Shown here: in pieces, positions 2,596 through 55,742 of the stretch
Position numbering within the stretch: position 1 is the first letter of the stretch
Layout: every line of letters begins with the position of its first letter
Source of the DNA: Candidatus Liptonbacteria bacterium
GTDB lineage: Bacteria; Patescibacteriota; Minisyncoccia; UBA6257; 2-01-FULL-56-20
Assembly: GCA_023244895.1 (NCBI GenBank)
Contig: JAHFLL010000001.1
Span: forward strand, 335,702 to 399,701
Length of the DNA stretch: 64,000 bases
Direction of reading: 5' to 3'
Program-made: the position numbers and the translations under genes
The notes under the pieces: generated by a model
Databases searched by the model: none
What the model saw: only the letters and a program-made list of their open reading frames with translations
Told to the model about the DNA's origin: nothing

Positions 2596-2695
2596 TTGGG
2601 AATTGACTGATGGAAAATTGATAGAGAGTTGGTGGCGTGGATGGGATGAAATGCAGTGAGACCCCGGAGCGTGTTCCGGGGTCTCTTGCTTCTTG

Positions 2696-3055
2696 CTACG
2701 TGCTGGCCCGTGCGCGGCCGCGGTTCAGTATGTCCGAGCCACGCACGATTCTCCGCGCCAGACCCGCTTCGCGCCTCAGCCTATCGAAGGCCGGTGCCGG
2801 GCGAAGGGGTCCATTGCCACGACGGACCCAGACACGAACGTGTTTGCCAATCGTGGGGTTCCGGCGGATGTGCTCTGCGAGAGTCCAGGTCGAGCACTCC
2901 CACGCGCGGTGGTCGGTCCCGGAACCGTCCTGGATCGTCTCGCACCTTGCGCTTTCAGTCGCCTCGATGGCATCTGCGACTATCTCATCAACATTGATGC
3001 CAATCGCAGTATTGGTTGATTCCACGTACCACCTCTGCCGCAGGCCTTTTGCCAC
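2696..3055 (-). CDS. Hypothetical protein encoded in a GC-rich insert (GTG start with an AAGGAG RBS 6 nt upstream)
   Basis: The minus-strand ORF has a good SD (caaggagcgtcacGTG). The surrounding 2600-3060 segment is about 60-65% GC, versus about 45% for its neighbours. No family was recognised. Confidence 0.3.
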   Translation of the reverse strand: MAKGLRQRWYVESTNTAIGINVDEIVADAIEATESARCETIQDGSGTDHRAWECSTWTLAEHIRRNPTIGKHVRVWVRRGNGPLRPAPAFDRLRREAGLARRIVRGSDILNRGRARAST

Positions 3056-3134
3056 GTGACGCTCCTTGAGTGGGGTTCTATATGAGAAATTATCCCATTT
3101 ACAGAAAATGTCAATTTTGGGGTAAGATTAGGGC

Positions 3135-3716
3135 ATGGTCATCTCTAGGGGTTTTGGCCCTAAAATTGTAGAAATGCTGAAAAACGGCGGGGTGGGCGTG
3201 GTCCCGACCGACACTATCTATGGTATTTCCGCATCCGCTCTAGATAAGGCGGCAGCAGAGCGAGCCTACTCTCTGAAGGGTAAGGCGGAACAAAAGCCCA
3301 TGATAGTATTAATCTCTTCGCTTAAAGATTTGGATATTTTCAATGTCCGCCTAAGCGTCATTGCCAAGAAGTTCTTGAAAACCTATTGGCCCGGGAGGAT
3401 TAGTGTAATTCTGGACTGTCCCGGCAAAAAACATGAATACTTACATCGTGGCACCAAGACACTAGCCTTTCGTGTGCCAGCCTATCCCGACTTGATAAGT
3501 TTATTAAAAAAAACGGGTCCGCTTGTTTCTACCAGTGCTAATCCTAGTGGGAAAAACCCGGCGGAGAGTATCGCGCAAGCCAAAAAATATTTTGGCGAGG
3601 AAATAGATTTTTACGTGGATACCGGCGACCTGGGATCAACTCCCTCCACGGTAGTGCGTCTTTACGAGGATGGAAAATTGGAAATAATCAGGAAGGGGAG
3701 CGTAAGAATAGGATGA
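3135..3716 (+). CDS. tsaC: L-threonylcarbamoyladenylate synthase (TsaC/YrdC/Sua5 family)
   Basis: VPTDTIYGISA, STSANPSG and other YrdC-domain motifs. Confidence 0.8.
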   Translation: MVISRGFGPKIVEMLKNGGVGVVPTDTIYGISASALDKAAAERAYSLKGKAEQKPMIVLISSLKDLDIFNVRLSVIAKKFLKTYWPGRISVILDCPGKKHEYLHRGTKTLAFRVPAYPDLISLLKKTGPLVSTSANPSGKNPAESIAQAKKYFGEEIDFYVDTGDLGSTPSTVVRLYEDGKLEIIRKGSVRIG

Positions 3717-4216
3717 GTAAGTTTATTATCGTGGACGAATCCGACAATATTATCGGCGCAAAAGAGCGTTCGGAAATTTTACCGGAAGATATTTACAGAG
3801 TAAGTGGTTTGATGCTTGCGAATAGTAATGATGAGGTGCTTATCGCCCGCCGCGCCTATACTAAAAGCCACGATCCCGGGAAATGGGGTCCGGCGGTAGC
3901 AGGAACAGTAGAAGAGGGCGAAACGTATGAGCAGAATATTATAAAGGAGGCAGAAGAAGAGCTCGGGCTTGTGAATATCAAGCCCATTCCGGGACCCAAA
4001 ATTTTCAGGAATGCCGAGCATCGTTATTTTGCCCAATGGTTCATTCTGAAAATGGACAAGCCGATTCGGGAATTTAAGGTTCAAGAGGTGGAGGTGGCAG
4101 AAATAAAGTGGATTAAGATAGAAGAGCTGATTGACGCCATACAGAATCAGCATCAGGATTTTTTGGCTGGTGCTCCGCAGTGGTTAGATATAGTAAAATC
4201 ACTAAAAGATGAATGA
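3713..4216 (+). CDS. NUDIX hydrolase
   Basis: Nudix box GTVEEGETYEQNIIKEAEEELGL. Confidence 0.7.
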   Translation: MSKFIIVDESDNIIGAKERSEILPEDIYRVSGLMLANSNDEVLIARRAYTKSHDPGKWGPAVAGTVEEGETYEQNIIKEAEEELGLVNIKPIPGPKIFRNAEHRYFAQWFILKMDKPIREFKVQEVEVAEIKWIKIEELIDAIQNQHQDFLAGAPQWLDIVKSLKDE

Positions 4217-5987
4217 AACTAGGAATTGTCAGAACTGCAAGAAGGATTTTGTAATAGAACCGGAGGACTTCGGGTTCTATGAGCGCATTAAGGTGCCGCC
4301 GCCGACCTGGTGCCCGGAGTGTAGACTGCAAAGAAGAATGTTGGTCAGAAATGACCATTTTCTATATAAAAGCGTAAGCAGTAAGAGCGGCGAGCCCATT
4401 TTCTCGTCTTTTCCACCCGAATCCGGCTTAAGGGTGTTCAGTCATAAGGAGTGGCTGGGCGACGATTGGGACCAAAATGAATCGGGCAAAGAATATGAAC
4501 CCCAGAAACCATTTCTGGCTCAGTTTTGGGACCTCCTCAAAACTGCGCCACTTCCAGCCAAGTCTGTGACCCAAGCAATTAATAGTGAGTACAGTAATAA
4601 TAGTAGCTATATAAAAAATTGTTATCTGTCTTTCGGATTAATGCATTCCGAGGGCATGCTCTATTGTGAAAATGCTAGCAAGTGTAAAGATTGTTTAGAC
4701 TGCTCTCTTTCACTGGGTTGTGAATTTTCCAGCGGAACTTTTTTAAACCAAAGGTGCTCGGTCGCGCACTACTCCTCTCATTGCGAGGATTGCCATAATA
4801 TATATTTATGTCGCGACTGTATTGGTGTTTCAAATTGCATAGGTTGCGTGGGCCTCAAAAACAAATCCTACCAGATTTTTAACGAGCAGTATTCCAAAGA
4901 AGAATACCTCCTTAAACTAAAAGAGTTTAATTTGGGTTCGCGCCAATCATTTAAAAATATTTTGGGAAAGGCTAGGGATTATTGGTTAAAATATCCCGTG
5001 AAATATGCCCGTAATTACAAAAATGAGGATTGCAGCGGGGAATACATAAGCAATTCTAAGAACGTGAAGTCTAGTTATTACATAGATGGGGGAGAAAATC
5101 TTAAATTTTGCCACTCGGTTTATGTTGCTTCCGGCCGGGATTCGTACGATCAATATAGATTTGGCAGTAATTCAGAATTGGTATATGAGAGTTGCTCCTG
5201 CGGAGACCACGTCTCCAATGTTAAGTTTTGTTATGGATGTTTTAATAATAGTCACGAGATGGAGTATTCCTTTTTGTGCTCTAGCTCTTCCCATCTTTTC
5301 GGTTGCGTGGGTTTGCATGGCAAGAAATATTGCATTTTGAATAAACAATACACAGAGGAAGAGTACGAAGTTCTTGTTCCTAAGATAATCAAACAAATGA
5401 GCGATATTCCCTATGTAGATAGGGCGGGTAGGACTTACAGGTACGGGGAATTTTTCCCGCCGGAGATTGGGCCGCTGGCTTACAATGAAAGCATTGCTCA
5501 AGAATATTTTCCCAAAAGCAAGGAGGGCGCAGAGGAGTATGGTTCTTTCTGGAGAGATCCAGGAGATAAAAATTATGTCCCAACCGTGCGACCCGAGAAT
5601 CTTCCAGATAGGATAGAAGACGTGCAAGATAGTATTTTAGATGAGATATTGGAGTGCTCTCATCTTGCAAAGTGCAGTCATCAATGCACCAGAGTATTTA
5701 AAATAATTCCTGACGAACTTGAATTTTATAGAAAGTTCCAATTGTCCCTGCCAGACTCTTGTCCCAATTGCAGATATTTCGAGAGAATTTCTCAGCGCGC
5801 TCCCATAAAGATGTGGCAGAGGAAGTGTCAGTGCGGGGGCGGTAAAAGCTCTAACGAGATATATCAGAATATGTCCCCGCATCAACATGGTGCGGAACCG
5901 TGTGCCAACGAATTTGAAACCAGTTACGCCCTAGACCGACCGGAAATCGTATATTGCGAACAATGCTACAATGCGGAAGTGGCGTAG
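4209..5987 (+). CDS. Cys-rich protein with zinc-ribbon motifs (CxxC..F..FY..P..CxxCR) at both termini and a central tandem Cys-rich repeat region; function unknown
   Basis: N-terminal CQNCKKDFVIEPEDFGFYERIKVPPPTWCPECR and C-terminal CTRVFKIIPDELEFYRKF...CPNCRYFER. Internal repeats include CIGCVGLKNKSYQIFN / LFGCVGLHGKKYCILN. Confidence 0.6.
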   Translation: MNETRNCQNCKKDFVIEPEDFGFYERIKVPPPTWCPECRLQRRMLVRNDHFLYKSVSSKSGEPIFSSFPPESGLRVFSHKEWLGDDWDQNESGKEYEPQKPFLAQFWDLLKTAPLPAKSVTQAINSEYSNNSSYIKNCYLSFGLMHSEGMLYCENASKCKDCLDCSLSLGCEFSSGTFLNQRCSVAHYSSHCEDCHNIYLCRDCIGVSNCIGCVGLKNKSYQIFNEQYSKEEYLLKLKEFNLGSRQSFKNILGKARDYWLKYPVKYARNYKNEDCSGEYISNSKNVKSSYYIDGGENLKFCHSVYVASGRDSYDQYRFGSNSELVYESCSCGDHVSNVKFCYGCFNNSHEMEYSFLCSSSSHLFGCVGLHGKKYCILNKQYTEEEYEVLVPKIIKQMSDIPYVDRAGRTYRYGEFFPPEIGPLAYNESIAQEYFPKSKEGAEEYGSFWRDPGDKNYVPTVRPENLPDRIEDVQDSILDEILECSHLAKCSHQCTRVFKIIPDELEFYRKFQLSLPDSCPNCRYFERISQRAPIKMWQRKCQCGGGKSSNEIYQNMSPHQHGAEPCANEFETSYALDRPEIVYCEQCYNAEVA

Positions 5988-6024
5988 GGGTAGAGAGTAG
6001 TAGGTAGAATGTAGTGTGTAAAAT

Positions 6025-6738
6025 ATGAATTTAGAAAAGAGAAAAGCATTGATTGGTATATTGTCTGTGCCGTGCGCCCTACTAGCTTTGTATCTGGTTT
6101 TCTGGTTGGTCTGGAGGTTGCTGGGATTACCGTCAGACGAATCGCTTATGGCGATAGTGGGAGATTTTTTCGGGCGTTACGGTCTTTGGGTGGTTTTTAT
6201 CAGTTCTCTAATCGAGGGTTTCTTAATTTTAGGCCAGTACTTTCCGGGTGGAACGGTGATATTCTTAGGAGTTATCTCCGCGGGGGAGGATGTTGGCCGA
6301 GCCATAGAAGTTGTAGCGGTGGTGTCTCTAGCCTTTTTTATCTCCTATACCCTTAACTACCTTATTGGGAAATACGGCTGGTATAAGCTATTGATTAGAT
6401 TTGGAATGAAGGGTTCATTGGAGGACGCAAAAAGAAAATTACAAAGACACGACTTAAACGCGGTTATATTCAGTTATTGGGAACCAAATCTGGCCTCTAT
6501 AACCGCTACTGCCGCAGGCATATTAAATATTCCAATTCTGAGATTTCTTGCTGTTTCCGCGGGAGGGATACTTATCTGGAATACATTCTGGGGAACGCTG
6601 GTCTTTAGCCTGGGCGCAGACGCGCTCAAGATTATAGGTCTGAAGTATGTCCTTATAATCTTTTGTGTTTGGGTCGCATTTCTGTTGGTCAGACACCATC
6701 TTGCCAACCGGCATAATTTGGCAGAATTAAAACGATAG
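6025..6738 (+). CDS. DedA/VTT-domain family membrane protein
   Basis: LIEGFLILGQYFPGGTVIF motif and 5-6 TM segments. Confidence 0.45.
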   Translation: MNLEKRKALIGILSVPCALLALYLVFWLVWRLLGLPSDESLMAIVGDFFGRYGLWVVFISSLIEGFLILGQYFPGGTVIFLGVISAGEDVGRAIEVVAVVSLAFFISYTLNYLIGKYGWYKLLIRFGMKGSLEDAKRKLQRHDLNAVIFSYWEPNLASITATAAGILNIPILRFLAVSAGGILIWNTFWGTLVFSLGADALKIIGLKYVLIIFCVWVAFLLVRHHLANRHNLAELKR

Positions 6739-6745: not shown

Positions 6746-7543
6746 TTGGCTGGCAAAACGATTTTATCCAACCACTCTCCAATTGAAATGTATCAATTAC
6801 CGAAACTTTCCAAGATGCCAGAGCTGACTCACGCTTTTTCCGATAAATCGGATGGCAACATGGCCGTTAGGTTCGGTGCGGAAGATGAGGTTTATAGAAA
6901 CCGTGTGGAGTTTTTGAAAAAGCTTAAAATAGAAACCAGGCAAACCGTCCTGATGGAGGTTCAACATGGCACGGACATAGAGTTTGTGGATAAGGGTGAT
7001 GGCGGGAAGGGAATGCTGCCGGACGTGCCGGGCTATAAAGTGGACGCCTTAGTTGCCATGGAAGACGGGGTCTTCCCATTCCTATTAGTGGGCGACTGTT
7101 TGCCGATTGTTCTATATGACCCGAAGAATAGGGTTATCGCTCTCGCACACCTAGGTTGGCGCAACACAGACCAGAGGTTTGTGGAGCTGTTGATCGGGGA
7201 GCTTAAGAAAGAGTGCGGTACGGACCCAGCCGACTTAATAGCGGGCATTGGACCATCTATACGCAAAGAGTCTTATATTTTTAAGGAAGGCGAGATTGCC
7301 GAAAGAAATTTAAAATGGGGCAGTGAATTTCTGATTCCGATTGGCAGGGGAAATGTCGCGGTTGATATCGCGGGATATAATATCGCGCAAATAATGGGAA
7401 CTGGGGTTAAGCTTGATAACATTGAAATAAGCGAGAGGGACACGGCCCAAGACGAAAATTATTTTTCTCACTACCGCTCCGCCCGGATCAAGGAGGAGGT
7501 GGAGGGCAGGATAGCGGCGGTGGTTGGAATGGTATGGAAATGA
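6746..7543 (+). CDS. pgeF: Peptidoglycan editing factor PgeF (YfiH/DUF152 laccase-domain protein)
   Basis: HGTDIEFV...DALVAMEDGVFPFLLVGDCLPIVLYDPKNRVIALAHLGWRN. Confidence 0.75.
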   Translation: MAGKTILSNHSPIEMYQLPKLSKMPELTHAFSDKSDGNMAVRFGAEDEVYRNRVEFLKKLKIETRQTVLMEVQHGTDIEFVDKGDGGKGMLPDVPGYKVDALVAMEDGVFPFLLVGDCLPIVLYDPKNRVIALAHLGWRNTDQRFVELLIGELKKECGTDPADLIAGIGPSIRKESYIFKEGEIAERNLKWGSEFLIPIGRGNVAVDIAGYNIAQIMGTGVKLDNIEISERDTAQDENYFSHYRSARIKEEVEGRIAAVVGMVWK

Positions 7544-13590: not shown

Positions 13591-13676
13591 TCCGGGATTG
13601 ATTGCTAGTAATGGTAGGCAGTCCCGGGGACGCGAATGGGTTGCGTTCCAAATGCACCTTGAGAGGAGAGGGAGGG

Positions 13677-14036
13677 ATGGAGATAGAGTTCATCTGCACT
13701 GAGACGGACGAGGGCTTGCGCAAGCTCGTGGATTCGGACTGCTTCGTGGTGGCGCATGGTCTGGAATCCTTGCGCGACCCGAGGTTCGGTCCACTGGTTG
13801 AAGGGGAGCTGAGGGGTCTTCCGGTCGGTCCGCGACGGATCTATCTGAAGAGTGGCAATGGCACGCCGCCCGGCAAGACGATGCTGGTGCGGCTCGTAGA
13901 TGATCCCAGTCATCGCATTGATCTGGACCTGTATGCCACGGATGGCTGGGGCGTTATCTTGCCTGCGGGCATGAGTCCAGACCAGATGTGGAGGGTCATC
14001 ATCAAGGCGTTGTCCATTCTAGAAGTTCGGGACTAG
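13677..14036 (+). CDS. Hypothetical protein, first gene of the GC-rich island (ATG 13677 preceded by GGAGGG)
   Basis: High-GC codon usage, strong RBS gagaggagagggagggATG; no recognisable domain. Confidence 0.45.
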   Translation: MEIEFICTETDEGLRKLVDSDCFVVAHGLESLRDPRFGPLVEGELRGLPVGPRRIYLKSGNGTPPGKTMLVRLVDDPSHRIDLDLYATDGWGVILPAGMSPDQMWRVIIKALSILEVRD

Positions 14037-14225
14037 CGCGTCCCGCCTAGAGGCGCCATCTCTAACCTACCCCATAGTCTGTCGCGGGTCGTCCAAACGG
14101 GGACGACTCGCGGCACCAACTTGTTATCTGAAGACTGTTTATTAAAAGATAAATAGTCTTCAGATCGCAGGCAGCGATCTGATAAGCTGCGTCGGGCAGC
14201 TTACATAGCACCTTGAGGGGACCAT

Positions 14226-14450
14226 ATGACCGAAATCGCAACGGGCGGACCCACCTGGACCAGCGGCGCGAATACGAGCGGCCCCGGACGTTTCGCGGCC
14301 ATGAGTGCGGGAGAGAGGTATGCTCTCCCCGCATCATCCGTGGAGCGCGAGGGGCCGCTCGGAAGGGTTGGGCAGGAAGAGTCGGTCGGATCCGCTCCCG
14401 TCGGTCAGAGCGGAAGCCCGCGCGGGCGGCGGCTCGATAGCTGGGCCTAG
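14226..14450 (+). CDS. Possible small Gly/Ser/Pro/Ala-rich protein (74 aa) in the island; could be a frame artefact of GC-rich DNA
   Basis: ATG with gagggga 6 nt upstream and GC3 of about 70%. Competing ORFs exist in other frames. Confidence 0.2.
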   Translation: MTEIATGGPTWTSGANTSGPGRFAAMSAGERYALPASSVEREGPLGRVGQEESVGSAPVGQSGSPRGRRLDSWA

Positions 14451-14636
14451 GGGAGTATAGTCCTGAGAATATTTTGGGGGTCGTGAGAGTCTTCAGGCGC
14501 TCGCAAGTCACGACTCCCACCCCATTTATCAAAAATATGAGATTACTTTTAATCGCTAAGAAATATTATTGGTTTAGTTATGAACCTCTCACGAGAAAGG
14601 GGCTGTTTGAGTAACTGCGTATTTATACAAACAACC

Positions 14637-14667
14637 AAAAAACCTCTTTCTCGGAAGAGGTTTTTTG
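14637..14667. terminator. Rho-independent terminator (AACCTCTT-tctcgg-AAGAGGTT + TTTTTT), bidirectional
   Basis: Read directly, immediately upstream of the ligase genes. Confidence 0.55.
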
Positions 14668-14720
14668 TTCCTCTTTCGAAGTGTCGCCCCTTGAGAACTT
14701 AATACGGAAAGGACAGGGAC

Positions 14721-15479
14721 ATGCATCAGATACAGGACTTCTTGGCGAGTTTCCGTTTCCGGCCAGAGCTGGCCGGCTGCGTCGGCATCGAGAGGGAAAG
14801 GTTTCTCGTGTCGCCCGAAGGTGCGTTCGCGCCCAGGGCAGACGAGTTTCTCTCGGAGATGCGGGACGCGGCTTGGACGTACGAGCTGTCGCGCTGCCAG
14901 GTTGAAGACAGAACCAGGTCGGCGCGCGACCACTTCATCGTCAAGGCGAATCTGCTCTCGAACGACAACCGGGGCAAGTTCGTCGCGGCGAAGATCGGTC
15001 TTGGGCTCCAGACGCTGGAAGTGGCGCCCGAAAGCATGCCGCTCGACGTCTACCCGGAGCCCCGCTACTTGGCCATCGCGGAAAAGATCAGCCGGGAAAC
15101 GCTCTCGGCTGCATGCCGGGTCGCCGGCACGCACATCCACCTCGGGATGCGCAACATGGACGAGGCCATCGCGGCCTACAACCTGCTCCGTGCTGAGCTG
15201 GAGACGCTCACGCGGCTCGGCGATCATTCCGGCGGAGAGAGAATAAGGCTCTACCGGGCGATGGCGGGGAAGTGGAATCCGCCGCAGTACCGGGACGAGC
15301 AGGAGCTCTTCGAGATCGCGCGTCAGGAAGGATTCGCGGAGAACTCCAGAAACTGCTGGCATCTTATTCGGATAACTCAGAAGGGAACGGTGGAGTGCCG
15401 GATGTTCGGCGTAACCGTATTCCCGGACGAGATTCTGGAGTGGGTGTCGGCTGTAAGGCGCATCGCGAGGGGAGTCTAA
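14721..15479 (+). CDS. Compact glutamate-cysteine ligase family 2 (GCS2/YbdK-like) carboxylate-amine ligase
   Basis: VGIERERFLV (YbdK GIELEMQVV-like Mg site), ELSRCQVE, RVAGTHIHLGM (YbdK GQHVHVG), GTVECRMFG (YbdK GTVEVRVMD). High GC3. RBS ggaaaggacaggg. Confidence 0.6.
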   Translation: MHQIQDFLASFRFRPELAGCVGIERERFLVSPEGAFAPRADEFLSEMRDAAWTYELSRCQVEDRTRSARDHFIVKANLLSNDNRGKFVAAKIGLGLQTLEVAPESMPLDVYPEPRYLAIAEKISRETLSAACRVAGTHIHLGMRNMDEAIAAYNLLRAELETLTRLGDHSGGERIRLYRAMAGKWNPPQYRDEQELFEIARQEGFAENSRNCWHLIRITQKGTVECRMFGVTVFPDEILEWVSAVRRIARGV

Positions 15480-15483
15480 GAGT

Positions 15484-16797
15484 ATGAGTAACCCAATGCT
15501 CGACGCGTTCGACGCTCAAGCGGAAGATATCTGCTCTCGTAGAGACAGCTTCCGCGTATCCGCTCCGGCGGTCGTAGTCGGTCTCGAATCGGAAATCGCG
15601 CTATTCTCGGACGAAATCGAGCCGCGCGACATATCCCAATTGCGGGAAGAGATGATCCGCGAAAACGGAGAACTCGCCCACGAGCTCGGAGCCACTCAGC
15701 TCGAGTTCCGGACGTCGCCGGTCGATATTCTGGATCGGGGCATTGGGGCGCTGCAGGAAGAGTTGGCGGGGAAGTACGAACAGATTCGGAGACAGGCCGT
15801 AGCGAGAGATCTCTTCATTCTCCGCATCGGCGCGAATCCGTTCTACCCCATCCTGGGCGCGCCCCGAACCGATAAGCCGCGGTATCAGCTGGTGCCGGAC
15901 TTTCAGAACGTGAATCGGCGGGCGGGCATGGACACGACCATCGGGATGAACGGCACACGGGTTGACGTCGGAGACGCGGCCAGCGTGTCGTTGTTCCAGG
16001 CGCTCCACGTGAATCTGCAAGCAGATTCCATCCCGGACGCGGTGGACAAGCTGAACCGATCCCTCATGGTCAGCCCCTACGTCCTCGCCGCGGCGGGCAA
16101 CTCGCGCTACCTGAACCTCACGGACACGGGCCTCAATGAGGCGCGCATGGTCGTCTGGGAGTTGAGCCACGATACGCGGACTCCGGAGGAGTTGCGCCAG
16201 GGCGTCGGTCTCCGGATCGGCTTGCCGGAGAACTACTTCGGAAATCTGCGCGCCTACTTCAATCGGATGCGCAGGTATCCGTTCATCCTGGACGATCCGG
16301 CCAAGGCCTTCGGTATCGCGACTGGTCTGTCCTGGCTCGACGCGCGGATCAAATTCATCGGCAATCACGCGGTGGTCGAGTTGCGCTCCCTGCCCACCCT
16401 GCCCACTACCTCGCAGGAAGTGGCGTTCGTGTCGTTCTATCTCGGCCGGCTGTTCTACTCCCAGCTCTCCGGCGAGAACCTGCTCGACATTGCGATGGTC
16501 GAGGAGAACCGTCTGAATGCGATGCTCTACGGTCTCCAGGCTCGCTTCTGGTGCCATGCGGATGGGGGCGTCAAGGTCTTGAGCGGAACGGAGATGTTCC
16601 GCTCGGAGCTCGCCAAGGCGAAGTCCGGCCTGGGAGAGGTAGGACTATCCGCCGATGCTCTGGGAGAGATTGAGGATTGGGGAGAGCTCGGTTCTCCTTC
16701 GTCCCGTCTCGCCCAGAACCTCTCGGGATATGTCCAGGTCCCGCACTGCAAGATGGTAGATGCGCTGTGGCGCACCGGCATTCTGGACATGTGCTAG
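15484..16797 (+). CDS. Second, longer GCS2/YbdK-like carboxylate-amine ligase paralogue
   Basis: VVGLESEIALF, ELAHELGATQLEF, SLFQALHVNLQ, NHAVVELRSLPT correspond to the GCS2 motifs. RBS aggggag. 4-nt gap from the previous gene. Confidence 0.55.
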   Translation: MSNPMLDAFDAQAEDICSRRDSFRVSAPAVVVGLESEIALFSDEIEPRDISQLREEMIRENGELAHELGATQLEFRTSPVDILDRGIGALQEELAGKYEQIRRQAVARDLFILRIGANPFYPILGAPRTDKPRYQLVPDFQNVNRRAGMDTTIGMNGTRVDVGDAASVSLFQALHVNLQADSIPDAVDKLNRSLMVSPYVLAAAGNSRYLNLTDTGLNEARMVVWELSHDTRTPEELRQGVGLRIGLPENYFGNLRAYFNRMRRYPFILDDPAKAFGIATGLSWLDARIKFIGNHAVVELRSLPTLPTTSQEVAFVSFYLGRLFYSQLSGENLLDIAMVEENRLNAMLYGLQARFWCHADGGVKVLSGTEMFRSELAKAKSGLGEVGLSADALGEIEDWGELGSPSSRLAQNLSGYVQVPHCKMVDALWRTGILDMC

Positions 16798-16809
16798 TTC
16801 GCAGTTTGT

Positions 16810-16843
16810 GGCCCCCGGTACGTTTAACCGGGGGCTATTTTTA
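16810..16843 (+). terminator. Rho-independent terminator (GCCCCCGG-tacgtttaa-CCGGGGGC + TATTTTTA), closing the GC-rich island
   Basis: Read directly. Confidence 0.6.
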
Positions 16844-16917
16844 TCAATCTTCTTTTGCCGCAATTGTGACAGGCTCCACATCTTTTAAAAATAGTTACGA
16901 TATGAAATAATCTAATT

Positions 16918-17676: not shown

Positions 17677-18104
17677 TTTGAGATATCTATAGGTTGGTGA
17701 TATAAGAGAATAAGCAGGCGCATTGTCGCCCACCAGCTGAGGAGGCTTCTGTGGATGTTCGGATCAGCCCTAGCGAGGAGTTGGCGAGAGGTATCCTCGC
17801 GACCCGAAATTGTCTTGTTCTTGTCGAGCTCCAGCTCGGCGAGGAAGAAGGCGATTTCGCGTGCGTCGTCTTCGGACCGGAGGATCTCCTGGAAGAGATC
17901 GCGGGGATTCAGGGTTGGGAACGAAGACCAACCGAGCCCCTCTCGATTCAAGTCCCTCTCCGGGCGGAGGCTTCGGAAGTAGTCAGGATTCTGGAACTTT
18001 CCATCGTTGATCTGTGCGTGGTGTCGGACGGCGATGGCGGGGAGATGGAATTCCCTGGTCCGGACGTCTCCCTTTAGCGAGTAGCAGTGGGTACGCGGAC
18101 GCAT
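17619..18104 (-). CDS. Possible GC-rich gene remnant on the minus strand (GC-rich patch about 17740-18120); function unknown, probably 3'-degraded
   Basis: The minus frame has the higher GC at codon position 3. agagg lies 7 nt upstream of ATG 18104. The ORF runs into the 3' end of the GATase gene. Confidence 0.2.
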   Translation of the reverse strand: MRPRTHCYSLKGDVRTREFHLPAIAVRHHAQINDGKFQNPDYFRSLRPERDLNREGLGWSSFPTLNPRDLFQEILRSEDDAREIAFFLAELELDKNKTISGREDTSRQLLARADPNIHRSLLSWWATMRLLILLYHQPIDISNYITSDSTTEFATSISTNS

Positions 18105-18201
18105 TTGTCGCCTCTGCCCACCCACCCGAGTTCATTATCCATATGGTGAATTGGGGTGGGTTTAATTGATTTAATCGGGCGAATCGCTATGATTAGCGTA
18201 A

Positions 18202-19476: not shown

Positions 19477-19493
19477 AGAACTAAAATATTAAA

Positions 19494-20513: not shown

Positions 20514-20663
20514 GCGGGCTTGGTCAGTAAAAGATTCGGATTGAACAGCTTCTTTAACTATGAAGTCTCTTCGTGGTTCAAGTTATGTTGACTTCCCGTA
20601 AAATAATTGTAATGATTGGCACCAGTCCGAACGAATAAGTCCGTTCTTTCATGAGAGGTCGGA

Positions 20664-21107
20664 ATGAACAAGCTGACGTTGACGCAATGGCTCTACTTCG
20701 CGATAGCTATCTTGGGCTGGAGTTTCTGGCCCAACCTGGCACGGCGAGCGGATCTCCCGCCCGCACTGACCGGCCTGGTTGTATCCTCCGCCACGGCTAT
20801 CACCGTCCTATTAGGGACGGCCGGGGTTGTCGCGGGACAGCTCGGCAAGGCCGTCTGGGCGAAGGTCATCCTGCTGGTCGTCGCGGGAGTGATCAACGGT
20901 TTGGGCATGCTCTTTATGCCCAAGGTCTTCATGTCAGTACCACAGGCGCAGATGTCGGTATTCAACGCCGGCATGATTGCCTGTATTCTGGCGCTCAGTG
21001 TCGCGAGCTCGTTCCTGTTCTTCTTCGGGCAGGACATGCTCACCTGGCGGAAGATCGGAATCTTCGCCGCCGTGGGAGTAGCCATCTGGCTTTCCGCGAC
21101 CGGATAG
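20664..21107 (+). CDS. Small 4-TM membrane protein (EamA/DMT half-transporter-like) in a GC-rich cassette
   Basis: High-GC codons; RBS gagaggtcggaATG; hydrophobic throughout. Confidence 0.45.
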   Translation: MNKLTLTQWLYFAIAILGWSFWPNLARRADLPPALTGLVVSSATAITVLLGTAGVVAGQLGKAVWAKVILLVVAGVINGLGMLFMPKVFMSVPQAQMSVFNAGMIACILALSVASSFLFFFGQDMLTWRKIGIFAAVGVAIWLSATG

Positions 21108-21197
21108 GCCGGACTGGACCGAGTAGGCGGAGGAGTGGCCACGCCAAGCGTGGCCAGAGGCGACTCGGCGCGGAGTCATGGTTCTCGCGACCTCCTA

Positions 21198-21800: not shown

Positions 21801-21866
21801 AGTCGATTTTATTGATATTTGCGAGTCGCAGACGATGCAAATATTATCATAAAATCTACTACCCCG

Positions 21867-30390: not shown

Positions 30391-30801
30391 GTGTTTATGT
30401 CGTGGCCGATGTTTCTCGTCGCAGCGATCTTTCTGACTTTCGGGTTTCTCTATTGGTTCTACCTCACTCCCAGCGGTGTCAGGGCTCGGCTGCGCGAGGA
30501 GATCAAGCGGGAGGATGGGTCAGAATCCTTGAGAAGTCACAGTCTCCAGACGGCAACAGACTGGCTGATTGCCAGAAAGGTGAGGGTCTGGAAGAACTGG
30601 AACGAGACGCGCCGGGCGGCGACAGCCTCCAATCTTCCCCGGGAGACAGTGGAAGTGTATGAGGGAAGATGCGCTTCGGCCAAGAACGACTTGGAAAGGT
30701 TGTATGAACTGGCCAAGAAAGGCAAGCTCTCGGTGTTTGCCCTTTGGGGCACCTATCTCGAGCGTGGCTTGGACACCTTTCCGCCCAAGGCATCAGTCTA
30801 G
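30391..30801 (+). CDS. Hypothetical protein with an N-terminal TM helix, in a GC-rich cassette directly upstream of tRNA-Lys
   Basis: RBS agaaagaggtgtttATG; high GC; no recognisable domain. Confidence 0.4.
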   Translation: MFMSWPMFLVAAIFLTFGFLYWFYLTPSGVRARLREEIKREDGSESLRSHSLQTATDWLIARKVRVWKNWNETRRAATASNLPRETVEVYEGRCASAKNDLERLYELAKKGKLSVFALWGTYLERGLDTFPPKASV

Positions 30802-30810
30802 CGAGTCATG

Positions 30811-30847
30811 GGGGCGCCAACGTCGGCGCCCTCGTTCGTTTTATTTG
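30811..30847 (+). terminator. Rho-independent terminator (GGGCGCCAACGTCGGCGCCC + T-rich)
   Basis: Read directly. Confidence 0.5.
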
Positions 30848-30886: not shown

Positions 30887-30960
30887 GCGCCCATAGCTCA
30901 GTCTGGTAGAGCAGCTCCCTTTTAAGGAGATGGTCCCAGGTTCAAATCCTGGTGGGCGCA
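30887..30960 (+). tRNA. tRNA-Lys (anticodon UUU)
   Basis: Manual cloverleaf. The acceptor stem GCGCCCA pairs with TGGGCGC. The D-arm is GCTC/GAGC. The anticodon loop is CTTTTAA. The T-arm is CCAGG-TTCAAAT-CCTGG. 74 nt, no encoded CCA. Confidence 0.85.
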
Positions 30961-31075
30961 CTAGGTTAACTCATAATTTATATTTTTTCTTTACTATAGG
31001 CACGGGCTTGATTATTTTTGTTTAGCTTATATATACTCTGTTCAGTTTCCTTGCTCCAACCGAGAGGAGGGTTTC

Positions 31076-31444
31076 GTGCCATTGCTGGGCGCTTTCATGA
31101 CGGTCGCGTTCTTTCTATATAGCGCGGCAATTTGGTCAGAAAGGTGTCAGCGCAGGCTGGTCCTTTGGATGGCGGTTCTGATGGCGTTCGGCTTTCTGGC
31201 CGACTCTATCGGGACCGGCATGATGATGCAGCTGGCCCGGGACAAGGGTCTGCAAGTGGGCGTGCATGGTTGCTTCGGCTATGTGGCCCTGGCCATCATG
31301 TTCCTCCATTTCGTATGGGCGGTGGGCACGGTGCTCTTTGACGAGAAATGGCAGATCTACTTCAGTCGTTTCTCCATCTGGGCGTGGTGCCTCTGGGTTA
31401 TCGCTTTCGTCATCGGCGGGATGGGGGCAGTGAACAAGGGATGA
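31076..31444 (+). CDS. Hypothetical 4-TM membrane protein in a GC-rich cassette downstream of tRNA-Lys (GTG start)
   Basis: RBS gagaggaggg; high GC. Confidence 0.4.
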   Translation: MPLLGAFMTVAFFLYSAAIWSERCQRRLVLWMAVLMAFGFLADSIGTGMMMQLARDKGLQVGVHGCFGYVALAIMFLHFVWAVGTVLFDEKWQIYFSRFSIWAWCLWVIAFVIGGMGAVNKG

Positions 31445-31454
31445 GGAGGAGCGC

Positions 31455-31688
31455 GTGATGCACAAGATGGTTTCGGTTGTGGTCCCGTTAGAGCTTTACG
31501 GGATCTTCAGCGGGAACTTCGGTTCGGCTTCGCCGGTCACGGTATCGCTTTCGACCAAGCTGGGGCTCGGCCAAGGCGACACTGTGTCCTGGGAGTGTGG
31601 TAGCGGGCACTCCGGCCAGGCGCGAGTGCTGCATAGTTCGCCGTGCGACGAAGTCGGCAAGGCGAACTACGTCATCGAGAAGCTCTGA
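31455..31688 (+). CDS. Small protein with an AbrB/MazE/SpoVT-like swapped-hairpin motif (putative antitoxin-like DNA binder)
   Basis: VTVSLSTKLGLGQGDTVSWE resembles MazE/AbrB (RIPATLMQALNLNIDDEV); RBS gaggagg. Confidence 0.3.
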   Translation: MMHKMVSVVVPLELYGIFSGNFGSASPVTVSLSTKLGLGQGDTVSWECGSGHSGQARVLHSSPCDEVGKANYVIEKL

Positions 31689-31695
31689 GATCTTC

Positions 31696-31728
31696 GGCCC
31701 CGGCCAGCATCGTGCTGTGTCCGGGGCC
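31696..31728 (+). terminator. Long GC hairpin (GGCCCCGG..CCGGGGCC) followed by a T-rich tract; probable terminator of the cassette
   Basis: Read directly. Confidence 0.4.
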
Positions 31729-31783
31729 GGCTACGTTTATGGTTTTAACTATATATTGATTGAAATTGTGGAAATTTGTTAAG

Positions 31784-50274: not shown

Positions 50275-50276
50275 AA

Positions 50277-51572: not shown

Positions 51573-51867
51573 GAGGGATTTAGGCAGAAATTATTTCTTC
51601 AATGGTAGGACAAGGCTTGTTTTACGATAGATTAGTTAATCTGTTGCAAAACAAGCATAATCTTTTGCGTCAGGTATGCTATCCCATATATCTGACGTAA
51701 AAGATATATTGGGCGACAGGTGCTATAGAGAGAAAGAGCCCTTCCCCCTCCGGAATCAGTGTTACTCAAATTATCGATTGTTAATCATTTATTATTGTTA
51801 ATTTGGTATAATTAACTGGTATTGGATTAAAGGTCGAAAGCAAATAAAACTACTCCTTTAAACCAAA

Positions 51868-52074
51868 ATGAAAGTTATACATATGGTGGCCTTCATTCTC
51901 CTAGTCATAGGAGGCTTGAACTGGCTCTTGACCGGACTTATCTCCGGTTGGGACTTGGCTAGCTACCTGGGCCCCACGCTCGCCATGATTATCTATATCT
52001 TGGTCGGCTTGTCCGCGATTTGGGAAGTTGCGACTCACAAGAAAAACTGCAAGGCTTGTGACGCTTCTATGTAA
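51868..52074 (+). CDS. DUF378-family small membrane protein
   Basis: ILLVIGGLNWLLTGL...YILVGLSAIW. Confidence 0.55.
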   Translation: MKVIHMVAFILLVIGGLNWLLTGLISGWDLASYLGPTLAMIIYILVGLSAIWEVATHKKNCKACDASM

Positions 52075-52163
52075 GAGGTATATCATTTAGTTCGTCAGTT
52101 AAACCAAGAGCGGAATCTGTGAGGGGTTCCGTTTTTGGTTTTCTGTGCTTTAATATACTTCAT

Positions 52164-53591
52164 ATGCCTTCTCGTAAAACTTCTAACTTCCAACTTCTAA
52201 ATTCCAATCCCTCTCCCAATCTCCCCCATCCGCCGCACGTTCATCTGGTTGGTATCGGTGGTATCGGAATGAGCAGTTTAGCTTACTGGTTTTTAGGTCA
52301 AAAATGGCTTGTTTCCGGCTCGGACAGGGAGAAGAGCCTGATTACCCAAGACCTCTTAAAACGGGGCGTAAGGGTCAAAATTGGGCATAAATCTGCCCAT
52401 GTGGACCCCCAGACAGACCTCTTAATCCACAATCAAGCCATAGACCAGGACAACCCCGAATTAAAACGGGCCAGACAGCTTGAAATAGAGGTCCTCTCCT
52501 ACCCTCAAATGATAGGTAATATCACTCGGCTTTATACCACCGTGGCGATCGCCGGCGCGCACGGCAAGAGCACTACCACCGCAATTACGGCTCTTATAAT
52601 GAATAAAGCCAAGCTGGATCCGAGCGTCATTATCGGGACCCGTTTAAAGGAATTTGATAATACCAACTCCCGAGTCGGTAAAGGCGACTATTTGGTTTTA
52701 GAGTCCGATGAATACGGTCGGGCGTTTCTAAACTATCAGCCCGTTTATGGAATTATTACCAATATTGATAAAGAGCACTTAGATATTTATCGCGACCTTC
52801 AGGATATTAAAAATACTTTTCTAAAATACATTGCTGGTTTTCGCCCCGGTGGTGGATTGGTTCTCAATAAGGACGACAAAAACTTATTCTCTCTTAAGTC
52901 CAAGATAGAAAAAATAGCGAAAGAAAATAGCCTGCAGGTCGTCTGGTATTCACTTAAAGATCCAACCACTGCCAAGATCAAGAAAATAATCCAGGTACCG
53001 GGCAGGCATAATTTGAGTAACGCGCAGGGGGCGCATCTCCTCGCTACCAAGTTTTTACGGGTTTCCGAAAAAGATTCCCTTTCCGCCATAAAATCATTCC
53101 GGGGCACTTGGCGCAGAATGGAACTAGTCGGCAAATATGATGGCGCGCCGGTTTTTGATGATTACGCCCACCACCCCACTGAGATTAAGGCGACACTATC
53201 CGCTTTTAAGGAAAAATATCCCAATAAAAAAATAGTTTGCGTATTCCAACCGCACTTATCCGACCGGCTTACGAAATTGTTCGGAGAATTTATAACCGCT
53301 TTTAACGACGCGAATGAAACCCTTATTCTGCCAATTTATAAAGTTGCCGGGCGAGAAAATAACGCCAAACACAAAAGCTCGCAAGATTTGGCGCGTGCTA
53401 TTCAAAAGAAGCAGCCCCACAAACCGCTCTTCTATATGGAGCATCCCAAGGACTTACATCTGGCACTCGCCTCTTTCGGTCCATTAAATAAACGGGTGAT
53501 TGTAATGATGGGCGCCGGAGATATCGCGAGCCTAACTCAAAAACTCATCAAAACCACTCCTCCGCGGAATATTAGGATGGGATGTTGCTAG
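52164..53591 (+). CDS. murC: UDP-N-acetylmuramate--L-alanine ligase MurC (the ORF track begins it at 52119; ATG 52164 after TAATAT is the more likely start)
   Basis: HLVGIGGIGMSSLA, GTHGKSTTTA Mur-ligase motifs. Confidence 0.85.
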   Translation: MPSRKTSNFQLLNSNPSPNLPHPPHVHLVGIGGIGMSSLAYWFLGQKWLVSGSDREKSLITQDLLKRGVRVKIGHKSAHVDPQTDLLIHNQAIDQDNPELKRARQLEIEVLSYPQMIGNITRLYTTVAIAGAHGKSTTTAITALIMNKAKLDPSVIIGTRLKEFDNTNSRVGKGDYLVLESDEYGRAFLNYQPVYGIITNIDKEHLDIYRDLQDIKNTFLKYIAGFRPGGGLVLNKDDKNLFSLKSKIEKIAKENSLQVVWYSLKDPTTAKIKKIIQVPGRHNLSNAQGAHLLATKFLRVSEKDSLSAIKSFRGTWRRMELVGKYDGAPVFDDYAHHPTEIKATLSAFKEKYPNKKIVCVFQPHLSDRLTKLFGEFITAFNDANETLILPIYKVAGRENNAKHKSSQDLARAIQKKQPHKPLFYMEHPKDLHLALASFGPLNKRVIVMMGAGDIASLTQKLIKTTPPRNIRMGCC

Positions 53592-53617
53592 AAGTCTTTA
53601 ATTAAAATATCCACATA

Positions 53618-54091
53618 GTGATAAAAGAAAAGAGCGTACATCGGATATTTTTAGTCAGTCTTATCCTCAAAGGACTGAACGCCTTTCTGGAAATTACGGG
53701 CGGTATTCTTTTCCTTTTTACGGGAACGCTAAGCAGTGTGCTTATATTTCTTACTAAAGGAGAGCTGATTGAGGACCCGACCGATCTCCTCGCAAGCCGT
53801 CTTGTCGGTCTCATCCCCTATCTATCCGTTCATACACAATTATTTGCTTCCTTTTACTTGCTTTCGCACGGAATAATAAAGATTTTTTTGGTAGCCAATC
53901 TGCTTCGCAACAAACTCTGGGCATATCCCGCGACTATAGGATTTTTAGGACTTTTTATCCTTTACCAACTCTACCGTATCGCCTACGCTCACTCCCTGTT
54001 TCTAATCGCGCTTACCTTATTTGATATCCTTCTAATATATCTTACCTGGCACGAATACAGCCTTGTTAAAAAGCATATTTCTCTAGAATAA
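53618..54091 (+). CDS. DUF2127-like multi-TM membrane protein
   Basis: Composition and topology. Confidence 0.35.
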   Translation: MIKEKSVHRIFLVSLILKGLNAFLEITGGILFLFTGTLSSVLIFLTKGELIEDPTDLLASRLVGLIPYLSVHTQLFASFYLLSHGIIKIFLVANLLRNKLWAYPATIGFLGLFILYQLYRIAYAHSLFLIALTLFDILLIYLTWHEYSLVKKHISLE

Positions 54092-54180
54092 TACCGACGA
54101 CAAATTGATTGAAAAACCTTCTAGCCATATAATAAGGATTAAACGTGAAAGAAGTATCGTGAAGAATTAATATAAGACAT

Positions 54181-54513
54181 ATGCTTACTAAGCTTCCCGA
54201 AAGTTTGAATTCGGATGGTAAAGGCTCAGATGCGCCTCCTCGAGTGGTTCCATCTCGGATGCTGGCATTGCTTATGGCCATATTATTATCTGCCCTCTGT
54301 GCTCCAAGAGGAGTTAAACGTGCCGTTTTCAGAATGGGGATCATCGATTCCCCTTTTCCTTTCGTTACTACCTTAAGCGTGGTTGTTCTAGTCTTTTTTG
54401 TAGCGCAAATTATTGTGACCTATTCTATTATTAGAGCCCCTCTCGATATGAAATCTAAAGTTGTATTAATATTTTTCATATCTTTATTGTCTTTTATTGT
54501 CAGTGTGAACTAG
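54181..54513 (+). CDS. Hypothetical small membrane protein
   Basis: ORF only. Confidence 0.25.
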   Translation: MLTKLPESLNSDGKGSDAPPRVVPSRMLALLMAILLSALCAPRGVKRAVFRMGIIDSPFPFVTTLSVVVLVFFVAQIIVTYSIIRAPLDMKSKVVLIFFISLLSFIVSVN

Positions 54514-54623
54514 GCAATAGAATCAGAAATATACTTTTGCCCTACCACATACTTGGAGCATTTTAGGGACTCCCGAAGAGGGCGCGTCTCCCTATATTCG
54601 TAATACTAATTTATATCAACATA

Positions 54624-54652
54624 TTGACATTATGGCAATAATAGTATATAAT
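54624..54652 (+). promoter_or_regulatory. Perfect consensus sigma70-type promoter TTGACA-17-TATAAT, in host-like AT-rich DNA, driving the GC-rich secreted-protein gene
   Basis: TTGACA 54624-29, 17-nt spacer, TATAAT 54647-52. Confidence 0.6.
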
Positions 54653-54741
54653 GTACCTCGTTTGTCCTTGGGAAATGACTCCCCTGGACGGACTTCAATT
54701 CTCGGCGGCGCCTAGCGCCGCGATGCCTTGCGGAGGGCACC

Positions 54742-55644
54742 TTGAAGAACAAGCTCTTTTACACCATCGGACTCATCGTCCTCGTGGCGCTCGCGTTCGC
54801 CGCGCCGGTCTCGGCGCAGTCGAAGACGCCAACTTTCGGCAAGGGCGCGCCACGCCCCGGCATGGTGGTCGTGGAGACCGCAAGCAACCCCATCCCCGCC
54901 CTCATGACCGAGGGTCTGAAGGGCAGCATCCAGACCGGCAACGGCTGGAAGTTGCCGTACGAGATGAAGGTGCTCGTCTTCCGCGCCCGGCGGAACTGGA
55001 ACGAGGTGGCCGGCAGCTACATCGAACCCGTCGGGGAACCGATTGCGACGCTCGCAACGTGCCCCGTCCTGGTGGTGATTTCGGGCGCCTTCCAGGAGGT
55101 TCCACAGGACTGCGTCACCCGCGACGGCTACTGGACGCTCAGCAAGCGCCTGGATCAGGACTACTACATGATCCGCGTCCTCGCGAAGGGCGGATGGTAC
55201 CATCCCTCCTACCAGGAAGTCTGGAACTACCACTCCGGTGGCGTGACGGAGTTCGACACGGTTCAGCTCCAGCGGTTCAGCATCCTGGTCAGCGACTTCA
55301 CCCTCAATCGGTGGGCCGCGAACCGGGTCTACGCCGAATTCCAACTGGCGAACAACTCCGAGTGGCAGGAGCCGGTCGTGATTCGGATCAAGCTCCGTGG
55401 GCCGTCCTACACGACGATCGATGCACCCCTCGCCGACGGGCAGCCCTTCGGGGGCTGGCTGGAGCCTTGGTCTCAGACTCCGGTCTGGTACTACTTCGGT
55501 ATCCCGTCTTGGACCGGCTCCAATGGGAAAGGCAAGGTCTGCGGCCAACTCGAGATCTCGAGCGGGTGGCAGTACGATCAGGGCTGGGTCTACGCCCAGC
55601 AGGACGTCTGCATCGACGCCTACTACCGCCAGCCCAAGGGCTAG
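54742..55644 (+). CDS. Secreted hypothetical protein (Sec signal peptide) encoded by a GC-rich cassette; TTG start
   Basis: MKNKLFYTIGLIVLVALAFAAPVSAQ signal peptide; high-GC codons; RBS ggaggg. Confidence 0.5.
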   Translation: MKNKLFYTIGLIVLVALAFAAPVSAQSKTPTFGKGAPRPGMVVVETASNPIPALMTEGLKGSIQTGNGWKLPYEMKVLVFRARRNWNEVAGSYIEPVGEPIATLATCPVLVVISGAFQEVPQDCVTRDGYWTLSKRLDQDYYMIRVLAKGGWYHPSYQEVWNYHSGGVTEFDTVQLQRFSILVSDFTLNRWAANRVYAEFQLANNSEWQEPVVIRIKLRGPSYTTIDAPLADGQPFGGWLEPWSQTPVWYYFGIPSWTGSNGKGKVCGQLEISSGWQYDQGWVYAQQDVCIDAYYRQPKG

Positions 55645-55700
55645 CCGCACAAGTCCGCCGGGTAGCTGATCCCCGTTCAGATCAGCATCGTGCAACATTC

Positions 55701-55742
55701 AACAGGCCGAGGGGAGTATATCCCCCGGCCTGTTCGTTTTTT
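55701..55742. terminator. Strong bidirectional rho-independent terminator (AACAGGCCGAGGGGA..TCCCCCGGCCTGTT + CGTTTTTT)
   Basis: Read directly; sits between convergent genes. Confidence 0.65.

Follow-up and report, generated by a model that had tools for sequence, protein, structure and literature searches.

Short GC-rich genes in variable slots of a Liptonbacteria-like genome, probably exchanged among Patescibacteria

Horizontally acquired islets are told from the genome around them by an atypical base composition that later undergoes amelioration, a concept due to Lawrence and Ochman. Phage morons, described by Hendrix and colleagues, are autonomous promoter-gene-terminator units, also of atypical composition, that lie between conserved genes. 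The term moron is in use (PMC4378225). Among 125 groundwater genomes of Patescibacteria, the candidate phyla radiation (CPR), hundreds of islands and transferred genes have been described; 83% of the transfers were within the phylum, most were not recent and a minority came from other phyla (PMC12455944). Further systems for comparison are flexible genomic islands (PMC4033161), whose contents are often cell-surface related and for which exchange by homologous recombination via the flanks has been proposed, and additive and replacing horizontal gene transfer (HGT; PMC11375855). Here we describe seven short GC-rich segments, numbered c1 to c7, in a 64,000-nucleotide stretch of contig JAHFLL010000001.1 from a Candidatus Liptonbacteria genome (hereafter the window), and argue that they are probably accessory genes sitting in variable slots and exchanged among Patescibacteria of differing GC content.

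The window resembles acquired islets and the HGT described in Patescibacteria (PMC12455944) in that its deviations in GC, and in GC at third codon positions (GC3), are gene-sized, patchy among relatives and associated with accessory or unknown functions, and the transfers would, as in that study, have taken place mainly inside the phylum and in many cases not recently. It differs from acquired islets in that no donor is identified and no integrase, transposase or flanking repeat is found; several units consist of one gene (0.4-1.1 kb) instead of a multi-gene island, and one gene pair, encoding two GCS2-family ligases within c2, stands at its ancestral locus. The likeness to morons lies in c4 to c7, which have their own promoter-like site and/or Shine-Dalgarno (SD) sequence, a composition unlike that of their flanks, hairpin terminators (c4 has no clear one) and a place between genes that are adjacent in relatives. 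These promoters and terminators are consensus matches only, and the backbone here is one of bacterial housekeeping genes (YchF, RecR, DnaJ, tRNA-Lys, PrmC and MurC flank the units), not a phage. Flexible islands and loci of additive or replacing HGT share with the window fixed positions that hold differing or highly diverged genes between conserved flanks, as at c5 and c7, where conserved regulatory flanks enclose open reading frames (ORFs) whose products are 31-41% identical to their counterparts. Unlike flexible islands, however, the slots span a gene or two, not tens of kb, and deviate toward higher GC. Integron cassettes are likewise small units, promoter-proximal for the most part, each with a single ORF whose function is mostly unknown, but the window has no IntI, no attC-like repeats and no contiguous array, its units being dispersed over 53 kb with promoters of their own. 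A classical integrative element would bring an integrase or transposase, direct repeats or an insertion signature at a tRNA 3' end; the Pfam scans of the larger ORFs and the repeat searches found no such recombinase or repeat, and tRNA-Lys, between c5 and c6, keeps its place in relatives.

An earlier note on this DNA had described visibly GC-rich segments in an AT-rich backbone. The segments are as GC-rich as they looked: GC is 0.480 for the whole window and 0.465 outside the seven segments, which pooled reach 0.601 over 6,957 bp, with single values of 0.564-0.632 (56-63% against 46.5%). These are c1 (2600-3060, GC 0.605), c2 (13600-16850, 0.594), c3 (17740-18120, 0.591), c4 (20650-21300, 0.618), c5 (30390-30850, 0.564), c6 (31060-31730, 0.599) and c7 (54660-55740, 0.632). 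The contrast is therefore real but was overstated, since a backbone of 46.5% GC is barely AT-rich; the intergenic DNA of the window is 43.4% GC. The sliding-window profile that the note had proposed, computed at 400 bp, peaks at the same seven places. A maximum-likelihood two-state segmentation puts the edges at most ~90 bp from the coordinates first read off the sequence, save for the right edge of c1 (~110 bp inward) and for c5; 2ΔlnL is 27-144 for six of the seven segments, and the c5 fit is disturbed by neighbouring c6. The segment at 13600-16850, first taken for a single cassette, is a composite of a small ORF (c2a), a non-coding stretch (c2b), an AT-rich leader and a ligase block (c2c).

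Codon positions tell where the excess resides. GC3 is 0.515 ± 0.051 in backbone ORFs (n=57, maximum 0.61) and 0.64-0.88 in cassette ORFs (z = 2.5-7.2), with GC at second positions (GC2) just modestly above the backbone. Because GC3 is strongly and GC2 modestly raised, the excess is mainly synonymous, and amino-acid composition is not its main cause. Cassette values at the three positions (first, GC1, ~0.55-0.64; GC2 ~0.42-0.47; GC3 0.7-0.88) are those seen genome-wide in a GC-rich syntenic relative, and are the product expected of a genome of ~60-65% GC. Nor is the anomaly peculiar to the window: similar islands occur across 1.19 Mb of related Paceibacteria loci, where islands of +0.10 GC number 0.55 per 10 kb (1.09 in the window) and islands of -0.10 GC number 0.68 per 10 kb (0.62 in the window).

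The mosaic is not a product of a chimeric contig, which the earlier note had offered as one of two explanations. Single-run assemblies in Logan (SRR14366791, SRR14366796) are 100% identical to the window across c1, c4 and c7: one contig (L001) matches 18993-26841 with both c4 junctions, a 27-kb contig (L179) matches 49741-58408 with both c7 junctions, and two others (L082, L083) match 2566-6055 and 2566-4321, taking in c1 and its right junction. A related species (L091-L094, four other assemblies) has c5 and c6, GC-rich there too, at the same place between DnaJ and PrmC. Because both the single-run assemblies and those of the related species reproduce the mosaic, we reject chimerism. The cassette proteins are present on the source contig of 840,672 bp. 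The best match of the window's YchF, at 81% identity, comes from a Candidatus Liptonbacteria metagenome-assembled genome, and the best 80 loci are all Patescibacteria, which bears out the suggestion of a CPR lineage; by these matches the organism appears to be a Liptonbacteria-like Paceibacterion with a genome of roughly 0.84 Mb.

Comparison with relatives places the variation at a few positions, namely between the class-II glutamine amidotransferase (GATase) and the hydrolase downstream of the ligases, between YchF and RecR, between DnaJ, tRNA-Lys and PrmC, and downstream of MurC; the backbone is otherwise syntenic. The YchF/RecR slot measures 685 bp here, against 2-22 bp in L004 and L005; in L002 it is 289 bp long and holds no convincing gene. 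The GATase/hydrolase slot measures 525 bp here and 26 bp in L085, and the slot between DnaJ and tRNA-Lys 565 bp here and 82-257 bp in four relatives. The tRNA-Lys follows DnaJ in five relatives too, four of which have no room for a c5-sized gene. By these spacings c3, c4 and c5 appear to be additional DNA separating genes that stand next to each other in relatives. Congeners, the L091/L175 lineage from ERZ909592, ERZ27254744 and JGI 3300025154, have backbone proteins 86-99% identical to those of the window with a fourfold-site divergence of 0.45-0.7, and also differ in content: L091 has an additional 163-aa ORF of 61% GC before PrmC, and the window has no counterpart of it.

From their divergence c2c and c6 appear to be older than the split from the congeners, and because they predate it the cassettes are not fresh arrivals; the c5 and c7 counterparts in congeners (41% and 31% identical) are too diverged for the same claim of age. 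The view of the earlier note that the cassettes were acquired fits c3, c4 and c5, whose neighbours lie 2-257 bp apart in relatives, but not the ligase block, which is at its ancestral position; the presence/absence comparison that it had proposed shows the slots of c3, c4 and c5 empty or otherwise filled in relatives, and c6 present in congeners.

A syntenic Paceibacterion of ~60% GC and GC3 0.7-0.86 (L085/L177, ENA ERZ27248201 k141_2900924) shows the mirror image of this mosaic, with low-GC genes for a trypsin-like protein (0.43) and an NYN protein (0.46). Its slots hold other small genes, pilin-like on both sides of tRNA-Lys and ORFs of 96 and 281 aa between YchF and RecR. GC3 of the slot genes is 0.64-0.73 there, with the backbone near 0.80, which suggests that accessory genes drift toward the composition of a common pool.

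Most of the units would be self-contained, each with an AT-rich promoter and an SD sequence ahead of a GC-rich ORF and, after it, a hairpin terminator that is GC-rich as well. The earlier statement that every segment has an SD-like motif and usually a GC-rich terminator stands for most units, by direct reading and by scans, with no obvious terminator at c4; its statement that several products are small membrane or secreted proteins is confirmed for c4, c5, c6a and c7. The c4 unit (20588..21197, + strand), between convergent YchF and RecR, consists of a promoter-like site (20588-20616), the ORF and a GC-rich tail, and is predicted to encode a polytopic membrane protein of 147 aa (20664-21107, +; GC3 0.79) with transmembrane (TM)-like segments. 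A recombination tract into RecR was considered and rejected, as the RecR 3' end codes for a conserved motif and is equally GC-rich in relatives. A stand-alone 84-aa GIY-YIG gene (21867-22121, -), some 560 bp from c4, has the lowest GC of any gene in the window (0.39), and an 89-aa GIY-YIG ORF lies ~620 bp from the c7 homologue in L090 (2543-2812). Small GIY-YIG proteins are common in CPR, and free-standing nucleases can promote local gene conversion; the nearness to the cassettes is probably coincidence.

The DnaJ-tRNA-Lys-PrmC region holds c5 and c6, with tRNA-Lys(UUU) (30887..30961, +) as the backbone landmark between them. The c5 unit (30391..30835, +; terminator 30808-30835) encodes a protein of 136 aa with an N-terminal membrane anchor (one TM segment) and GC3 of 0.71. 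Its counterpart in L091 is also GC-rich, 122 aa long and 41% identical, and the c5 terminator and tRNA promoter are almost identical between the two. Fourfold-site divergence of c5 is 1.3 (21 sites) against 0.45-0.7 in the backbone, and this excess beside a conserved terminator hints at allele replacement rather than evolution in place. The c6 unit (31008..31733, +) begins at a promoter-like site (31008-31037) and ends in a GC-rich terminator hairpin. Its first ORF, c6a (31076-31444, +; 122 aa), has four TM-like segments and matches NCBIfam TIGR03987 at 82.8 bits (curated cutoff 78.2; E = 1.9e-23), so that the product is a predicted HsmA family 4-TM protein; the second ORF (31455/31458-31688, +) encodes 76/77 aa. 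GC3 of the two is 0.76-0.78. Their orthologues in L091-L094 are 84% (HsmA) and 64% (small ORF) identical, and fourfold-site divergence from these congeners is 0.35-0.64, backbone-like.

The c7 unit (54624..55745, +) is the most deviant. A perfect TTGACA-17-TATAAT promoter at 54624-54652 (12/12 match to the sigma-70 consensus) is followed by a GC-rich 5' untranslated region, a 300-aa ORF (54742-55644, +) with a GGAGGG SD and TTG start (GC3 0.88, z = 7.2), and a bidirectional terminator (55701-55734). The product is predicted to be secreted, with a signal peptide and four conserved cysteines; its AlphaFold model (pLDDT 64) has two beta-sandwich domains, for which a fold search returns just generic Ig/FnIII-like beta-sandwich accessory domains at low TM-score, supporting no claim of function. 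The family has three or four members at 25-31% protein identity. The counterpart in a congener is 31% identical with the promoter core conserved, and the regulatory flanks in general (the c5 terminator and tRNA promoter, the c7 promoter core) are ~80-100% conserved in congeners. Public gene calls put an antisense 328-aa ORF (54712-55698, -; L179 2711-3697) over c7, which looks like a mis-annotation typical of GC-rich islands; the plus-strand ORF is favoured because of its GC3 of 0.88, its signal peptide and its homologues.

The neighbourhood of c7, downstream of MurC, is a mixed-composition accessory/defence islet. A low-GC pair (0.40-0.41) adjoins c7 at 55741-57438 (-), encoding an APH-family phosphotransferase and an AbiTii abortive-infection protein (E = 1e-41). 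A close relative has other genes downstream of MurC (NUDIX, guanylate-kinase-like). Both contigs of the close relative, L175 (15795-16183) and L176/L095 (5924-6298; L095 and L176 are one JGI record), stop at one and the same point, within the inverted repeat directly past the c7-like GC-rich ORF, which could be an assembly artefact or reflect population-level hypervariability.

The ligase block c2c (14721..16847, +; GC 0.61-0.62, GC3 0.78-0.81) encodes two GCS2-family carboxylate-amine ligases of 252 aa (14721-15479, +) and 437 aa (15484-16797, +), a pair assigned by Pfam PF04107 and a YbdK-like NCBIfam model, and ends in a terminator at 16808-16838. The next gene of the operon, the GATase, has GC3 of 0.47 against ~0.8 for both ligases. 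The order GCS2-GCS2-GATase-hydrolase ... YchF-RecR-DnaB-CysS is kept in L055 and L085; c2c is thus at its ancestral operon position, and therefore at most an allele replacement, not an insertion. In a close relative (L084) identity is 85% at the nucleotide level over 15805-16847 with unrelated sequence beyond: the homology stops at 16847, the exact GC boundary, and a 272-aa GC-rich ORF follows the second ligase gene where the window has the GATase. Fourfold-site divergence of c2c from this relative is 0.43, backbone-like. The 437-aa ligase has three named homologues, two from Patescibacteria and a third, the weakest match, from a Woesearchaeota archaeon; on these matches the GCS2 ligase family appears to be a CPR family.

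The operon as a whole (14721-18969; L055 5705-8679, L085 9233-13042) combines the two GCS2 ligases with a class-II (Ntn) GATase and an S9/alpha-beta hydrolase, and its taxon-labelled homologues are CPR and one archaeon. Its make-up suggests an uncharacterised amide-bond-forming pathway, like EgtA/EgtC in enzyme classes only. Ahead of it lies a conserved AT-rich leader (14547..14670, +) with a terminator-like hairpin at 14636-14667, which belongs to the backbone and not to a cassette. It is conserved in L055 (~5560-5655) and L069 (~6900-6985), that is in three distant Paceibacteria counting the window, as a motif, AACCTCTCnCGAGAAAGGGGCT, followed by the terminator hairpin AACCTCTTTCnCGGAAGAGGTTTTTT. 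A repeated AACCTCT in the leader could pair alternatively with the 3' arm of the terminator, which makes the leader a candidate attenuator or riboswitch; no Rfam family matches it at or near its gathering score.

The remaining segments are smaller. The c1 islet (2600..3060, -; core 2660-2952 with GC 0.67) has a candidate ORF of 119 aa (2696-3055, -) with an AAGGAG SD, a GTG start and a hairpin past the stop (2658-2685). The ORF, of doubtful coding status, is annotated as a gene in public data, its codon periodicity is weak (GC1/2/3 = 0.62/0.57/0.70), and c1 has no Pfam, NCBIfam or Rfam match. A soluble ORFan of 119 aa, c2a (13677..14036, +; GGAGGG SD; GC1/2/3 = 0.62/0.42/0.72), has no family match and no homologue in any of the relatives' loci fetched. 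Next to it, c2b (14040..14540, +; GC 0.59) is a non-coding structured stretch with a minimum free energy of -242 kcal/mol (z = -7.3 on the plus strand, -5.2 on the minus strand), several perfect 14-18-bp hairpins and no codon periodicity. It matches no Rfam family even at E<=10, has no homologue in the same relatives' loci, and may represent a new RNA, the remains of a decayed gene or a cluster of hairpin repeats. In the gap between the GATase and the alpha/beta-hydrolase, the c3 islet (17713..18165, +) contains an acidic ORF of 108 aa (17751-18077, +) with a GAGGAGG SD and GTG start, followed by a CCCACCC...GGGGTGGG hairpin. Frame analysis is ambiguous between this ORF and an antisense ORF of 168 aa, and c3 has no family match.

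Searches for a vehicle were negative. Pfam scans of the larger window ORFs and the precomputed Pfam tables of relatives (about a dozen others) contain no integrase, transposase, other recombinase or phage gene; a repeat search and an all-against-all blastn of the cassettes reveal no shared boundary repeats, attC sites or terminal inverted repeats, and the segment boundaries show no direct repeats or att-like sites. A phage origin was rejected, since there are no significant PHROG hits and three viral-contig scans are negative, c4 for one having no viral relatives. Structured RNA genes were likewise rejected as the cause of the GC-rich patches: Rfam searches of the window, c1 and c2, with the gathering score as threshold and with E<=5-10, find only tRNA-Lys, and ARAGORN finds no tmRNA.

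How then did these genes come to differ so much from their surroundings? We consider it probable that the GC-rich segments are accessory genes in variable slots and have passed between Patescibacteria that differ in GC. We infer a source inside the phylum, because cassette composition fits a 60-65% GC genome and such genomes exist among syntenic Paceibacteria. It would combine additive insertion with allele replacement by recombination via the conserved flanks, followed by slow amelioration, and the GCS2 pair would be a GC-rich version of genes native to that position.

Several observations weigh against this explanation. Genes of the c7 family exceed their flanks by +0.13 to +0.19 GC in all four genomic contexts found (besides the window, 0.53 against 0.34-0.41 in L089, 0.50 against 0.27-0.37 in L090 and 0.63 against 0.44-0.48 in L175; two of the contigs are 37-40% GC), and because the family is always GC-richer, transfer plus amelioration alone does not predict the pattern. 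Hallmarks of mobility were looked for and not found, neither mobility genes in the ORFs scanned nor direct repeats or att-like sites at the boundaries. The divergence of c2c and c6 keeps pace with that of the backbone, so that their acquisitions are old and indistinguishable from long-resident high-GC genes. No donor is identified. In composition-normalised tetranucleotide usage (TETRA) the pooled cassettes correlate with the backbone at r = 0.58, below random backbone subsets (0.72 ± 0.05), and with sampled GC-rich Paceibacteria at r = 0.29-0.51, none of which fits better than the resident backbone; the tetranucleotide check that the earlier note had advised therefore makes the cassettes less typical than backbone DNA, yet closest to the resident genome. 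Finally, coding evidence is weak or absent for c1, c2b and c3, and these together with c2a are weak cases.

The same observations lend something to the alternative that the segments are resident genes whose high GC is kept locally, by GC-biased gene conversion at fast-evolving surface loci or by selection on mRNA or codons, which we regard as unlikely. The c7 family keeps its GC surplus despite 25-31% identity, c2c and c6 have co-diverged with the backbone while GC at fourfold sites is still 0.65-0.83 in both lineages, the tetranucleotide usage of the cassettes is closest to their own genome, and the slot genes of the GC-rich relative, at 0.64-0.73, have GC3 like that of the cassettes (0.64-0.88) in a backbone of ~0.80. 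A shift in GC3 from 0.5 to 0.8-0.88 is, however, far above the known effects of biased gene conversion in bacteria; the ligases are not surface proteins, and the adjacent GATase of the same operon has ordinary GC. The presence or absence of whole units between congeners still needs gain or loss. Moreover, high GC after long residence is expected under transfer as well, because the synonymous divergence per lineage (~0.25-0.3) is too small to erase a foreign composition.

A further explanation, tentative and in our judgement unlikely, is that Paceibacteria keep a few fixed slots with conserved promoter and terminator flanks, into which GC-rich, fast-diversifying surface-protein cassettes of the c5 and c7 type, drawn from a shared pool, would be swapped again and again by homologous recombination, with their high GC actively maintained. 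Here high GC would be kept through biased gene conversion, or because the pool resides on a GC-rich mobile reservoir as yet unsampled, and would not be the fading trace of a donor.

That the cassettes came instead from a high-GC host or another non-CPR bacterium, as the earlier note had suggested for an epibiotic lineage, is improbable. The composition fits a source of 60-65% GC, the HsmA family of c6a is widespread outside CPR, and membrane or secreted products are what one would expect in host interaction. Other phyla do supply a minority of the genes transferred into Patescibacteria (PMC12455944). No non-CPR homologue of c7 was found, however, in searches of ~5.8 billion and 1.84 billion proteins; the word-indexed one of these was empty, as was a first metagenome scan with the c7 family alignment, and the family was found only in AT-rich contigs. 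The sole relative of c6a sharing 5-residue words sits in a congeneric CPR contig, so that for c7 and c6a nothing was found outside relatives (the searches of the large protein collections did not take in c4 or c5). With two of the three named ligase homologues in CPR and the third in a Woesearchaeota archaeon, and with a tetranucleotide signature insufficiently foreign and closest to the resident genome, the host origin of the cassettes is unsupported and the note's proposal of a host donor falls.

Least credible of all, and very improbable, is an assembly or binning chimera, or structural RNA genes in place of acquired genes: in AT-richer genomes such patches commonly prove to be rRNA, tRNA or other structured RNAs, c2b folds stably and is non-coding, and the coding signals of c1 and c3 are weak, but the identical single-run assemblies over c1, c4 and c7, the recurrence of the mosaic in a related species, the sole Rfam hit to tRNA-Lys, and, for c2c, c4, c5, c6 and c7, a strong periodicity of three bases, a signal peptide or TM segments, and homologues all speak against it.

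Two further features of the window lie apart from the cassettes. A 41-nt near-perfect palindrome, CCACTCCACGATAATTAACGATCGTCAATTATCGTGGAGTT, occurs at 2557-2597 and 58377-58417 with 98% identity between the copies, both directly 3' of the stop of a plus-strand gene and with no tie to the cassettes. The Logan contigs covering the two palindromes all end inside them (window positions 2566 and 58408); the palindrome may be an element like the repetitive extragenic palindromes, or a bidirectional terminator, that fragments short-read assemblies. A 592-aa protein (4209-5987) has no Pfam match and three tandem paralogues in L085 (1-7322), and its gene shares a 93-nt C-terminal motif (5886-5978; 72% identity) with the ORF at 11-397 (296-388); it is a putative member of an expanded CPR-specific family.

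These results clear the contig of suspected mis-assembly and expose a likely antisense mis-annotation of the c7 gene in public calls. They also show that composition alone would mislead as to the donor, since the evidence favours a source inside the phylum over a host. The mosaic is a further example of a known phenomenon, HGT-rich Patescibacteria genomes having already been described, and leaves current understanding unchanged. What it adds is a concrete example of how ultra-small CPR genomes vary, in which a rigid housekeeping backbone has a few slots that gain, lose or swap one-gene units, many of them encoding envelope or secreted proteins. A role of the membrane and secreted products at the cell surface or toward a host would fit this picture, and c5 and c7, as fast-diverging presumed surface proteins, are candidates for studies of host or phage interaction. 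If the swapping of maintained GC-rich cassettes between conserved flanks were true, the slots would give episymbionts without integrases a miniature system of surface variation.

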